This document shows, piece after piece, positions 13-1,771 of a stretch of 64,000 nt of DNA. The translations under genes and the position numbers were made by a program. How positions within the stretch are numbered: position 1 is the stretch's first letter; every line of letters starts with the position of its first letter. Under the pieces are notes generated by a model, which saw only the letters and a program-made list of their open reading frames with translations, was not told the origin of the DNA and did not search any database. This DNA is from Escherichia coli (GTDB taxonomy: Bacteria > Pseudomonadota > Gammaproteobacteria > Enterobacterales > Enterobacteriaceae), in NCBI RefSeq assembly GCF_050920415.1, contig NZ_CP169309.1, one strand, 5' to 3'.

Positions 13-56
13 TCCCGCATTTCGGCGGGAATGAGGACCATGACTGTTAAAGAGCG
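13..56 (-). promoter_or_regulatory. nutR-like N-utilisation site (boxA plus boxB hairpin) just downstream of cro
   Basis: Minus strand reads CGCTCTTTAACA (rrn-type boxA) followed by hairpin TCCCGC-CGAAAT-GCGGGA, identical to the hairpin at 1754-1771 upstream of N. Confidence 0.6.
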
Positions 57-63
57 GTGTTAC

Positions 64-288
64 TTATGCTGCCTGATTCGGTTTTGGAAACAGGTGTGGC
101 AAATCGGGGCGAATTTCGTAAGCCTTGATCTGCCCTCCAGTGGCGTTAACGATGGCGGTAACTTTCTCTGGAGAGACCAATCCGCCTTTCAGCCATTTGT
201 GTACTGCTGGCTGCGTTACACCACACTTGTCGGCAAGGCGCTTTTGGCTACCGACAATTTTCAAGGCTCGTTGAATTACTAAATTCAT
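64..288 (-). CDS. cro: Cro-like HTH repressor (74 aa from the Met with a good RBS; ORF track gives an 81-aa version from 309)
   Basis: Small HTH protein (QKRLADKCGVTQPAVHKWLKGG) divergent from cI across an operator-containing gap; AAGAGG RBS placed for the ATG at 288. Confidence 0.6.
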   Translation of the reverse strand: MNLVIQRALKIVGSQKRLADKCGVTQPAVHKWLKGGLVSPEKVTAIVNATGGQIKAYEIRPDLPHLFPKPNQAA

Positions 289-324
289 GAGCATACCTCT
301 TGTGGTCATTGATTATAACCAAAG

Positions 325-387
325 ATAACTCAAGTTATAAAAAATAGCAATAACCTTTGTTATTTTACTTTGGATAACCGTAGTTAT
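325..387. promoter_or_regulatory. OR operator cluster: three ATAAC-N4-GTTAT palindromes (325-338, 350-363, 374-387) with divergent pR/pRM
   Basis: Three 14-bp palindromes at about 24-25 bp spacing between divergent cro and cI. Confidence 0.65.
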
Positions 388-399
388 AGATTTGTGGGT

Positions 400-1107
400 A
401 TGAAAACATTCGCAGAAAGACTAAATGCAGCCATGAGCTTAGCTGGGGTATCACAATCACAGCTTGCAGACATGGTTGGAATATCTCAGCCAGCCATACA
501 GAAGATGTCGTCCGGTAAAACAAACGGATCTCGCAAGATGGTTGAATTAGCCAATGCTTTAAAAGTGCGCCCTGAATGGCTTAGTTCTGGTATTGGTGAA
601 ATGAGGGATGGTGCACATGAAGAACCATCCAATGTCCGTGAGTCATCTTTAAAAGCTGTGGTATGGGAAGACATTAAAAGAAACGATGACGAGTTTGTTG
701 CGTTGCCTCTTCTTAACGTTTCGCTTTCAGCTGGAAGCGGTAGCTGCGAGCTAGAGGAATCATCGGAGTTCTCTTTGGTTTTCAGAAAGCACTATCTGAA
801 AAAGATGGGAGTATCTGAAAGATCAGCCAAGCTAGTTAGGGTTGTAGGGCAAAGCATGGAACCTACGCTTCACGATGGCGATGTTGTTGGTGTTAACACG
901 CAAGATACCACAATCAGAGATGGTAAAACCTACGCTATTTGCCAGTCTGATTTGTTACGAGTAAAAACATTAATCGCCACCCCTACATCGGTGATAATCA
1001 GATCAATAAATCGCGAAGAGTACCCGGATGAAGTAATGGATAGAGATGAATTTCATGAAACCGTAAGGATTATTGGCAGAGTATTCTGGTCGTCTCATAG
1101 TTGGTAA
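400..1107 (+). CDS. cI: CI-type prophage repressor, N-terminal HTH plus C-terminal LexA/S24-like autopeptidase domain (235 aa from ATG 400; track start 370 is a TTG extension)
   Basis: HTH (SQSQLADMVGISQPAIQKM), S24 motif GQSMEPTL with downstream Lys; divergent from cro; not lambda cI sequence, so heteroimmune. Confidence 0.85.
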   Translation: MKTFAERLNAAMSLAGVSQSQLADMVGISQPAIQKMSSGKTNGSRKMVELANALKVRPEWLSSGIGEMRDGAHEEPSNVRESSLKAVVWEDIKRNDDEFVALPLLNVSLSAGSGSCELEESSEFSLVFRKHYLKKMGVSERSAKLVRVVGQSMEPTLHDGDVVGVNTQDTTIRDGKTYAICQSDLLRVKTLIATPTSVIIRSINREEYPDEVMDRDEFHETVRIIGRVFWSSHSW

Positions 1108-1147
1108 CCGATAATCAGAAGAAGACTTACGGAAGTGCGGAGGGATA

Positions 1148-1444
1148 ATGGAATTTCTGATAGTTTTTGTTGTTGTTTTGGTCATCATTCTTTTTGTTTT
1201 GCTAAGCATTAGCAAAAAGCTATCTCAAATGATTGAACATAGCTCTAATCGCGCAAAAGAAGAAGAGCATCTAATTGATATAAAAGAGATTCTCTCTGAT
1301 ATAAAAATCACATTAGATGAAATAAAATACACAACAGATCTAATTGAACAGTATAAAATACCAACCCCAAACGAGAGAAAATCAATAGATCAATATCGTA
1401 TTGACTTAGAAATCGACGAAATGCTAAGCAACAGAAAGGACTAA
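1148..1444 (+). CDS. Small single-pass membrane protein in the rex position, co-oriented with cI (98 aa)
   Basis: GGAGGG RBS then ATG; N-terminal hydrophobic helix FLIVFVVVLVIILFVLLSI then charged helical tail; visibly AT-rich; terminator follows. Confidence 0.6.
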   Translation: MEFLIVFVVVLVIILFVLLSISKKLSQMIEHSSNRAKEEEHLIDIKEILSDIKITLDEIKYTTDLIEQYKIPTPNERKSIDQYRIDLEIDEMLSNRKD

Positions 1445-1449
1445 AAACA

Positions 1450-1474
1450 CCCGGCCTCAGCGCCGGGTTTTTCT
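1450..1474 (+). terminator. Intrinsic terminator ending the cI-moron (pRM) transcript
   Basis: CCCGGC-loop-GCCGGG hairpin followed by TTTTTCTTT. Confidence 0.7.
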
Positions 1475-1598
1475 TTCCCTGCCGTTCACCATCCAATCAA
1501 CCATCCTCATCATAGACAAGCATCAAGCCAAAGGTAACACCTTCACCCAGCACGCAAGCCCTCAAACACCAATCAATCAGCAACATTTACAAAAATAA

Positions 1599-1681
1599 AA
1601 TACCTTTGTTATCCATCACTTATAACTTATTTACCACAAAATATAAATTAGGTTATTGACCACACCTATAACCTAAGTTAT
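1599..1681. promoter_or_regulatory. OL operator cluster / pL region (perfect ATAAC-N4-GTTAT at 1668-1681; near-matches at 1599-1612 and 1643-1656)
   Basis: Same palindrome family as OR, located between the pRM-operon terminator and nutL/N. Confidence 0.5.
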
Positions 1682-1729
1682 CTTTAAGCCATCAGCAGGA
1701 AGCTGGTAGCCAAACGGAACAGATTGGCA

Positions 1730-1771
1730 GGCTCTTTAACATTGATGGGATTGTCCCGCCGAAATGCGGGA
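1730..1771 (+). promoter_or_regulatory. nutL-like site: boxA (GGCTCTTTAACA) and boxB hairpin (TCCCGC-CGAAAT-GCGGGA)
   Basis: rrn-like boxA and hairpin about 110 nt upstream of N; inverted identical copy at 13-56. Confidence 0.65.

Follow-up and report, generated by a model that had tools for sequence, protein, structure and literature searches.

The 64-kb stretch of Escherichia coli DNA analysed here (the window) carries a pair of RNA elements that are very probably nutL and nutR of a lambdoid prophage, with an N protein of the coliphage HK620 specificity class. The N/nut class itself is not new, having been annotated in HK620 in 2001 (Clark et al., 2001, J Mol Biol 311:657, as represented by record AF335538 and PMC2629481); AF335538 words both sites as 'nutL/nutR; putative N-utilization'. 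It is also widespread: about 8-10% of complete E. coli genomes, and more than 120 viral contigs, contain the stretch from nutL to the arginine-rich motif (ARM) of N. The original prediction had taken the two hairpins for nutL and nutR, and the map of the immunity and early region agrees, with one site between PL and N and the other on the PR transcript, immediately after cro:

11-32, minus strand: nutR boxB hairpin, AUUCCCGC-CGAAAU-GCGGGAAU, with an 8-bp stem (eight pairs in the fold; the core common with nutL is 13-30)
45-55, minus strand: nutR boxA, GCUCUUUAACA, the presumed NusB/S10 site (exact match; the same as in the annotated nutR of HK620 and in phi21 boxA)
64-288, minus strand: cro, 74 aa (ORF; Pfam YdaS_toxin, HTH_3 and P22_Cro), with nutR 9 nt beyond its stop codon; PGAP labels the 225-nt cro homologue 'transcriptional regulator'
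312-395: OR/PR region, with a PR-like minus-strand promoter, -35 at 341-336 and -10 at 317-312 (promoter scan)
324-339, 349-364 and 374-389: three 16-bp OR operators, RATAAC-N4-GTTAT (read from the sequence; repeats common to OL)
400-1107, plus strand: cI-type repressor with HTH and S24 peptidase (Pfam Peptidase_S24, 1.4e-17; HTH_3)
1449-1476, plus strand: terminator ending the cI operon (t_imm analogue), upstream of OL (7-bp GC-rich stem, then a T run); tIMM is annotated at the same relative position in HK620
1598-1690, plus strand: OL/PL, TTGACC-17-TATCTT at 1656-1684 (-35 at 1656, -10 ending at 1684; promoter scan)
1642-1657 and 1667-1682: OL operators overlapping PL (operator repeats)
1731-1741, plus strand: nutL boxA, GCUCUUUAACA (exact match; within the annotated nutL of HK620)
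1754-1771, plus strand: nutL boxB hairpin, UCCCGC-CGAAAU-GCGGGA, 12 nt 3' of boxA (identical in HK620 nutL and in more than 120 viral contigs)
1783-1864, plus strand: long N-leader hairpin between nutL and the N ribosome-binding site (fold of 1691-1900)
1879-2184, plus strand: N antiterminator, 101 aa (intact ORF)
2766-2794, plus strand: strong intrinsic terminator of the PL operon, tL1-like (8-bp stem, then T7)

Homology with the lambda PL leader places the probable start of the PL transcript at about 1691 (AUCAGCAGG...), and the leader sequence ATCAGCAGGA is common to lambda, phi21 and HK620. The predicted fold of 1691-1900 reaches -73 kcal/mol (z = -3.15), a stability matched by none of 200 shuffles, and the motif CAAAGnnnnnnGGCUUUGGGGUG flanking the long leader hairpin is conserved in lambda, phi21 and HK620. 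This hairpin lies at the same position as what we take to be its counterpart, the RNase III-sensitive leader structure of lambda N. Relatives carry a leader insert of 250 nt. Further downstream, the terminator at 2766-2794 is a likely target of N-modified polymerase. The same nut layout is found in the annotated records of HK620, phi21, Sf6, VT1-Sakai and lambda.

The hairpin sequence TCCCGCCGAAATGCGGGA is read at 1754-1771 on the plus strand, and its reverse complement TCCCGCATTTCGGCGGGA at 13-30 on that strand, so that the second hairpin lies on the minus strand, just as had been claimed. With up to three mismatches allowed, these are the only two matches in the whole window (0.06 expected), and two or more matches appeared in none of 100 shuffles; a repeat search returned the same pair as a 19-nt inverted repeat (12-30 and 1754-1772) with 100% complementarity. 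The predicted boxA ahead of each hairpin is likewise present, as the exact 11-mer GCTCTTTAACA at 1731-1741(+) and 45-55(-), in transcript sense and 12-14 nt 5' of the hairpin core; the 11-mer alone, with one mismatch allowed, is found three times against 1.26 expected, which is not significant by itself. Its description as rrn-type holds as well, GCUCUUUAACA being equal to the boxA of phage 21, which is identical to E. coli rrn BoxA (PMC3177189). Folded alone, the hairpin has a predicted energy of -9.7 kcal/mol (z = -2.9), and it persists in the predicted folds of a 61-62 nt context and of the 210-nt PL leader. The common core of the stem is 6 bp, and nutR gains two flanking pairs to reach its 8 bp. 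Because the asymmetric transcript loop reads CGAAAU at nutL and nutR alike, the element is strand-specific and more than a DNA palindrome. Rfam searches with nutL, nutR and the leader gave sub-threshold noise alone and no family match. Within 61 nt of context, boxA pairs with AAAGAG immediately 3' of nutL boxB; sequestration of boxA is not proposed, because the AAAGAG segment joins the long leader hairpin in the 210-nt leader fold.

The assignment to the HK620 class is carried by direct comparison with GenBank AF335538, in which boxA, spacer and boxB are base-for-base equal to the window at both nut sites. The class is recognised by boxB UCCCGCCGAAAUGCGGGA at nutL and nutR and by an ARM of the form ...DDNARNRRRARRQAQREQAMQ, and the window has both. 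Residues 1-56 of HK620 N, with the same ARM, are identical to those of the window N except at position 2. At the DNA level, window positions 1-64 are 100% identical to HK620, and nutL with the leader falls in a 91% block (1591-2070); these are the only matching stretches, namely the two nut sites and the ARM, and they surround an immunity region (cI, cro and operators) that is unrelated in HK620. The two elements also differ in backbone, HK620 being a P22-like podovirus and the window prophage having lambda int/att. The N proteins are not orthologous over their whole length: the C-terminal third of HK620 N is a P22/VT1-Sakai-type tail (...CLPNVAIYAAGYRKSKQLTAR), whereas that of the window N is of lambda/phi21 type (...KQNRIYYRKPRSEMGVTCSGRQKQRGKSIPAYYD). 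Thus, since the C-terminal third of N is lambda/phi21/Sf6-type and not the HK620 tail, the class is defined here by ARM and boxB only.

N itself is a mosaic. The distinct arginine-rich motif that had been noted in the ORF at 1879-2184 is indeed there, as NARNRRRARRQAQREQ within the intact 101-aa frame; alignment gives an HK620-type ARM at about residues 11-27 (DNARNRRRARRQAQREQ), a phi21-type middle (about residues 33-75) and a lambda/Sf6/L-type tail (about residues 76-101). The protein matches PHROG 271, 'anti-termination protein N-like', at 3e-36, and scores 20.1 bits against Pfam N_peptide, under the 27.9-bit gathering cut-off. Residues 37-97 are 87% identical to phi21 N, and residues 61-98 align to residues 73-109 of lambda N (PDB 6GOV chain N; E = 2e-6); the C-terminal RNA polymerase-binding segment is homologous to that of lambda N (lambda residues 73-107) in the solved antitermination complex 6GOV. 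The middle region gave no convincing alignment with the NusA-binding region of lambda N (lambda residues 34-47). By sequence, the locus has the hallmarks of a lambda-type N/nut system: boxA (GCUCUU(U)A) 5' of a hairpin, a boxB of short stable stem and A-rich loop of 5-6 nt, paired placement, a small basic ARM-bearing N and homology in the polymerase-binding segment. Among 45 distinct N sequences adjoining this boxB, the ARM is nearly invariant and is accompanied by at least four tail types. In gp24 of P22/L there is a precedent for joining an N-terminal module that sets specificity to interchangeable C-terminal tails (PMC8022706), and the phage L tail (...QKQRGKSIPAYYD) equals that of the window N. 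The combination of this ARM with a phi21/lambda-type body already exists in isolated phages, since HF4s N is 97% identical to the window N over its full length, and the N proteins of CUS-3, IME10 and vB_EcoP-611R6 are about 91% identical; these four phages have other backbones and immunity regions than the window.

The comparison with phage 21, P22 and H-19B that the original prediction had proposed sets the pair apart from all three. Phage phi21 has the same boxA and the same PL-leader scaffold (GATTGGCAGGCTCTTTAACAT...), and its class (CUAACC-loop boxB, ARM GTAKSRYKARR) shares only these and the N middle with the window; its ARM is GTAKSRYKARRAELIAERR, and its boxB is UCUCAAC-CUAACC-GUUGAGA at nutL and UCACC-UCUAACCG-GGUGA at nutR, both unlike the window. 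The P22 class (GACAA-loop boxB, ARM NAKTRRHERRR), compared through phages L and SH2026Stx1, differs in both partners: the P22/L ARM is GNAKTRRHERRRKLAIER, and the boxBs are GCGCU-GACAA-AGCGC at nutL and CCGC-CGACAAC-GCGG at nutR. H-19B came into view through strain H19, which is among the best E. coli matches. H-19B N has 127 aa and the ARM 12-RSRRRER-18 (PMC3526286); both length and ARM differ from the window N, ruling out this identity, and the matching H19 prophage is another, IS-ridden element that lacks H-19B N.

Among the reference phages, every ARM class is paired with a boxB of its own at nutL and nutR alike, the groups being lambda/Sf6, phi21/VT1-Sakai/PA28, P22/L/SH2026Stx1 and HK620/window. 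This pattern was surveyed across loci carrying the PL-leader motif GATTGGCAGGCTCTTTAAC, with nutR called by class-specific boxB patterns; taking the first boxA-like match plus any hairpin had given false positives, for example CTGCAACCTTGGCAG. ARM, nutL and nutR classes are concordant in 133 loci (HK620, 91; P22, 22; phi21, 18; a fifth class, 2), a boxB of another known class occurs in none of the loci surveyed, and three have no recognised boxB on the right. With only 107 nt between nutL and the ARM, their joint inheritance is in part trivial, and nutR is the informative partner. Natural swaps agree with the survey: SH2026Stx1 has cro-cI in common with the window (42-1109, 93.8%), yet a P22 ARM and P22 boxBs at both sites, while HK620 has the nut sites and ARM in common around its unrelated immunity region. 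Moreover, the HK620-type boxB pair flanks at least five immunity-region sizes, from 1.15 to 3.1 kb. No within-class covariation is available for the boxB stem, because the hairpin is invariant in all collected loci, the first set of which was chosen by exact match to the 18-mer. Against coupling, phage mEp213 has an HK620-type N without an intact cognate boxB; thus, the ARM can persist uncoupled. As comparative data, the concordant classes and the natural swaps support ARM-boxB coupling, and sequence together with co-inheritance suggests a distinct functional specificity for the N/nut pair.

A rival view is that the specificity is a variant within the lambda recognition mode, such that this N acts on lambda-type boxB or lambda N acts here. 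Lambda does resemble the window in having boxA, spacer and boxB in both early operons and an N-terminal ARM built on an RRRxRR core; RNRRRARRQAQ, the core of the window ARM, can be aligned with lambda QTRRRERRAEKQAQ, the window loop holds GAAA like the A-rich lambda loop GAAAA, and the titles of Cocozaki 2008 and Franklin 2004, as cited in PMC8022706 and PMC2629481, indicate overlapping boxB requirements of lambda and P22. The differences nevertheless bear out the earlier claim of a non-lambda boxB and ARM. Lambda boxB, GCCCU-GAA(A/G)A-AGGGC, has a 5-bp stem of another sequence and a pentaloop, against 6-8 bp and a 6-nt loop in the window; the lambda loop changes by one base between nutL and nutR, while the window hairpins are identical; lambda boxA (CGCUCUUA) is shorter than GCUCUUUAACA; and the position of lambda Trp18 is Ala in the window N. 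Direct comparison with NC_001416 and Sf6 accordingly found neither the boxB GCCCUGAA(A/G)AAGGGC nor the ARM QTRRRERRAEKQAQW of the lambda class. In nature, the ARM class changes in step with both boxBs, and the 133 loci hold no mixed combination, a pattern that implies selection for matching. We therefore regard a shared specificity as unlikely.

That the hairpins instead act as intrinsic terminators, or as palindromic protein-binding sites on DNA, is very improbable indeed. Their GC-rich 6-8 bp stems resemble those of terminators and the two arms are palindromic as DNA, but a U tract is absent after both copies (AACCAAAGAG; AAUACAACGC), on which ground the terminator reading is rejected, and the terminator scan called neither. 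The asymmetric loop that keeps the same sense in both transcripts would be needless for a DNA palindrome, and each phage class has its own hairpin at the same place, 8-14 nt after boxA. A different doubt concerns use rather than identity: the nut sequences could be genuine while the prophage is defective or never induced, the pair having fallen out of use. The right arm (cII/O/P and late region) lies outside the window, an IS3-family element (orfA/orfB, 2933-4146, minus strand) breaks the PL operon about 750 bp past N, and a near-identical immunity region in strain H19 belongs to a prophage whose integrase is a pseudogene and which carries IS insertions. On the other hand, cro, cI and N are intact, as are both nut sites, PL/PR and the operators, and these elements are identical or nearly so to those of isolated phages, namely HK620 (nut sites, 100%), HF4s (N, 97%) and Stx1a_10051 (98.5% over window 1-2070). 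Int is full length and 99.2% identical to lambda Int, and ybhC directly adjoins the lambda att core at 12543-12557, placing the prophage at lambda attB, in line with the predicted heteroimmune mosaic prophage with lambda int/att. A relic is thus improbable.

On the preferred reading of an HK620-class N/nut pair, binding, Nus dependence and antitermination would be expected by analogy with lambda. The PL and PR transcripts would each carry boxA GCUCUUUAACA followed by boxB UCCCGC-CGAAAU-GCGGGA; NusB/S10 would bind boxA, and the N-terminal ARM NARNRRRARRQAQREQ would bind the boxB loop and upper stem. Together with NusA and NusG, the RNA-tethered N would then render RNA polymerase terminator-resistant through its lambda-like C-terminal segment. 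Left-side targets would include the tL1-like terminator at 2766-2794, and those on the right would include tR1, just beyond the left edge of the window. It is also possible, although we put this forward tentatively, that the HK620-type pair is an orthogonal and structurally distinct peptide-RNA mode, in which an ARM lacking Trp would recognise a true GAAA (GNRA) tetraloop, with a C.U mismatch as its closing pair and a stem of 6-8 bp; the boxBs of lambda and P22, in contrast, form pseudo-GNRA pentaloops with an extruded base.

A literature search for the boxB sequence, in DNA or RNA form, found no paper containing it in the searchable library; for HK620 boxB or nut sites, the epsilon34 genome paper alone was found, and published experiments on this ARM/boxB pair were not. 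For this widespread class, the literature searched likewise yielded no biochemical tests.

For the window, the result identifies the early control region of a mosaic lambdoid prophage of a common kind, located at lambda attB, an assignment that is correct but ordinary. In most genomes PGAP calls this N a 'hypothetical protein' and leaves the nut sites without annotation; the table of ARM/boxB classes could serve to annotate both. More broadly, the comparative data show that an ARM of about 30 residues and both boxBs move as a matched set, independent of the immunity region and of the C-terminal modules of N. Were the distinct recognition mode to prove true, RNA tethering would gain another naturally orthogonal ARM/hairpin pair in the HK620-type one, which would also allow the divergence of N specificities within a single conserved leader scaffold to be studied.

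The window begins 12 nt beyond nutR of the prophage, and its early region is organized as follows.

Features of the early region and the integrase (coordinates, strand where assigned, description)
13-30 (-): nutR boxB core, reverse complement of TCCCGCCGAAATGCGGGA (direct reading)
45-55 (-): nutR boxA, GCTCTTTAACA, exact (motif match)
64-288 (-): cro (ORF map)
about 312-395: OR/PR with three 16-bp operators
400-1107 (+): cI-type repressor with HTH and S24 peptidase domains
1148-1444: 98-aa ORF
1449-1476: terminator
1656-1684: OL/PL, TTGACC-17-TATCTT
1731-1741 (+): nutL boxA, GCTCTTTAACA, exact (motif match)
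1754-1771 (+): nutL boxB hairpin, TCCCGCCGAAATGCGGGA (direct reading)
1783-1864 (+): long, very stable leader hairpin separating nutL from the N ribosome-binding site (z = -3.15 for the leader fold)
1879-2184 (+): N
2766-2794 (+): strong intrinsic terminator, tL1-like
11399-12469: Int, 99.2% identical to lambda Int

Right of the early region are recombination and integration genes of lambda type. Similarity to lambda runs up to the 15-bp att core (12543-12557) and no further, and the core adjoins ybhC; together with the Int match, this indicates that the prophage occupies lambda attB. Judged by its sequence, the element is a prophage that combines the lambda attB position with an immunity and N/nut region unlike that of lambda, which upholds the original prediction of a heteroimmune mosaic with lambda-type integration. 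The leader hairpin at 1783-1864 presumably lies where lambda N has its RNase III-processed leader structure. Within the PL operon, directly past the tL1-like terminator and a short ORF (2753-2893), lies an IS3-family insertion sequence (2933-4146(-); orfA 3820-4146, orfB 2933-3820; called IS1203/IS3-family in relatives), which is antisense to PL transcription and may be polar on downstream early-left genes. A 326-aa ORF right after it in the early-left operon (4108-5088(+)), similar to Sf6 gene 33 and annotated in a relative as 'coiled-coil domain-containing protein', encodes an extended coiled-coil-like segment that is highly charged and rich in E/A/K/R.

The same 18-nt hairpin had been noted upstream of N and, inverted, at nutR, and direct reading found it exact at both sites, with identity reaching 19 nt in a repeat search of the window. 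At up to 3 mismatches, TCCCGCCGAAATGCGGGA has only two matches in the 64 kb (0.06 expected; none of 100 shuffles gave two). As also noted, boxA precedes each hairpin in transcript orientation, lying 5' of the shared core by 12 nt at nutL and 14 nt at nutR. The asymmetric loop is CGAAAU on both transcripts, and this common sense argues for an RNA-level element. Folding predicts the hairpin from the isolated sequence (-9.7 kcal/mol, z = -2.9), from 61-62 nt segments around it and from the complete 210-nt PL leader; at nutR, two extra flanking pairs extend the predicted stem to 8 bp (11-32). By analogy with the C.C flanking GACAA in P22 nutR, the loop may form a GAAA tetraloop closed by C.U. A literature search found no paper with this boxB sequence.

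Reference phages were sorted into four classes by boxB and by the arginine-rich motif (ARM) of N.

ARM/boxB classes of the reference phages and the window
lambda, Sf6: ARM QTRRRERRAEKQAQW; nutL boxB GCCCUGAAGAAGGGC; nutR boxB GCCCUGAAAAAGGGC
phi21, VT1-Sakai, PA28: ARM GTAKSRYKARR; nutL boxB UCUCAACCUAACCGUUGAGA; nutR boxB UCACCUCUAACCGGGUGA
P22-type (L, SH2026Stx1): ARM NAKTRRHERRR; nutL boxB GCGCUGACAAAGCGC; nutR boxB CCGCCGACAACGCGG
HK620, window: ARM NARNRRRARRQAQ; nutL boxB UCCCGCCGAAAUGCGGGA; nutR boxB UCCCGCCGAAAUGCGGGA

At the sequence level, the N/nut type is thus other than lambda's, as had been proposed, and the suggested comparison with phage 21, P22 and H-19B places the window with none of them; the system is not of the lambda, phi21, P22 or H-19B class, and its ARM and boxB are those of the HK620 class. 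One PL-leader scaffold (...CAGATTGGCAGGCTCTTTAACAT...) is common to all reference phages but lambda and Sf6, and the hairpin set into it differs. A fifth class, seen in four viral contigs (L159, L185, L190 and L194), has the same scaffold, an N start of MKAREIRKLER(A/S)RQHKE... (ARM KAREIRKLER) and the hairpin GGGGAUGAUUCGUCCCC at nutL, and also at nutR in two of the four.

The HK620 record (AF335538) has one feature labelled 'nutL; putative N-utilization leftward' and another labelled 'nutR; putative N-utilization rightward', and in these features boxA, spacers and the 18-nt hairpin all equal those of the window. HK620 N starts MTVVITYLADDNARNRRRARRQAQREQAMQEQRLARKIALKLSGCVRADKAASLGS, and its first 56 residues match window N except at residue 2. 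By ARM and boxB, the window N/nut system is therefore of the HK620 specificity class, although the two N proteins are not whole-protein orthologues.

Alignment indicates that window N is a mosaic, HK620-type from residue 1 to about 32, phi21-type over 33-75 (87% over 37-97), and ending in a tail (...TCSGRQKQRGKSIPAYYD) common to Sf6 and L. Residues 73-109 of lambda N contact RNA polymerase. Window residues 61-98 align with this segment in the antitermination complex 6GOV. The match to PHROG 271 is strong, and Pfam N_peptide scores 20.1 bits, below its 27.9-bit gathering threshold; the phi21-type middle of N gives no convincing alignment with the NusA-binding region of lambda N (residues 34-47). 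Apart from these points, all testable defining features were found, and on sequence grounds the system belongs to the lambda-type N/nut family. Beside HK620-type boxBs, the ARM is nearly invariant and is joined to at least four different tails, one N variant turning P22-like directly after residue 30. This agrees with the report that P22 and L gp24 kept the same boxB targets although their C-termini are unrelated (PMC8022706).

Loci fetched by the PL-leader scaffold motif were pooled with loci found by the 18-mer. ARM, nutL and nutR classes were concordant in 133 loci (HK620, 91; P22, 22; phi21, 18; fifth class, 2), the 18-mer-derived set having been chosen on the HK620 boxB, so that only its ARM and its pairing count as independent there. 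In no pooled locus did a boxB belong to another known class, and in three (one HK620-type, two fifth-class) the right side lacked a recognised boxB. SH2026Stx1 matches the window across the cro-cI region (42-1109, 93.8%) up to a point shortly before boxA and 11 nt away from the core of the nutR boxB; its ARM is P22-type, as are its boxBs at left and right. HK620 has only 1-64 (100%) and 1591-2070 (91%) in common with the window, blocks that comprise the two nut sites and the ARM, and its immunity region between them is unrelated. Overall, the boxB pair brackets at least five immunity-region sizes. Because nutR lies across the immunity region from N, co-switching of ARM and nutR would scarcely be expected unless matching is selected for, and the ARM and both boxBs would thus constitute a matched functional set.

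Outside the window, a 250-nt insert was observed directly 3' of an intact HK620-type nutL boxB in six collected loci (L163, at 2437-2686(+); L046, L084, L110, L161 and L196), sitting in the N leader between this boxB and the conserved CAAAGAGTAGTTGGCTTTGGGG. Its core is present in 13 loci, and the insert also occurs in mEp213 (L212:1501-1751) after a truncated boxB, in Hafnia phage yong1 (L211:1496-1745) after a different nut site, and in two Stx2c-converting phages. It starts with an SD-like AGGAGG and a mini-ORF of 3 to 6 codons, and has no Rfam match and no annotation. In two sequence variants, a long-range helix (alignment columns 95-104/199-210) is kept via compensatory changes; the insert is possibly a structured leader RNA that has yet to be described. 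In mEp213 (JQ182733; L212:1-2129, L213:1170-1320), nutL and nutR are lambda-type and N has a lambda ARM, and a second N gene with an HK620-type ARM lies about 1.1 kb downstream. Upstream of this second N, the boxB is halved where a tL1-like terminator adjoins it (TTGCCCTCC joined to GAAATGCGGGAAC), leaving this N an orphan without an intact cognate nut site nearby.

By analogy with lambda, the ARM of N would bind boxB RNA and NusB/S10 would bind the rrn-type boxA; the boxA of imm21 is the E. coli BoxA (PMC3177189), and that of phi21 equals the window boxA. Tethered to the RNA, N would, with NusA and NusG, let polymerase read through terminators, candidate targets being the terminator at 2766-2794 on the left and, on the right, tR1, which is annotated directly after nutR in HK620 and whose position here is beyond the window edge.

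More than 120 viral contigs carry the 18-mer without mismatch, almost always as a divergent pair among the matches listed. Of 5426 complete E. coli genomes, 412-525 contain the 227 bp that run from the nutL boxB to the ARM. Near-complete, full-length matches to window N are present in the isolated phages HF4s (97%) and CUS-3, IME10 and vB_EcoP-611R6 (about 91%). E. coli strain H19 is the classical source of phage H-19B. In H19, a separate P22-like prophage (NZ_AP027165.1 3168218-3195565) carries the window's cro-cI region and an HK620-type nutL leader. Its integrase is pseudogenised, it contains IS600/IS3 insertions, and the annotation of this stretch lists no stx gene. Annotation of identical sites dates back to 2001 and the module is widely distributed, so the N/nut element is already known. 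In most complete E. coli genomes, PGAP calls window-type N a 'hypothetical protein' (hits H26-H37 and H106-H110), with 'antitermination N domain protein/peptide' used in occasional cases; window-type N is thus a common gene that annotation tends to miss.
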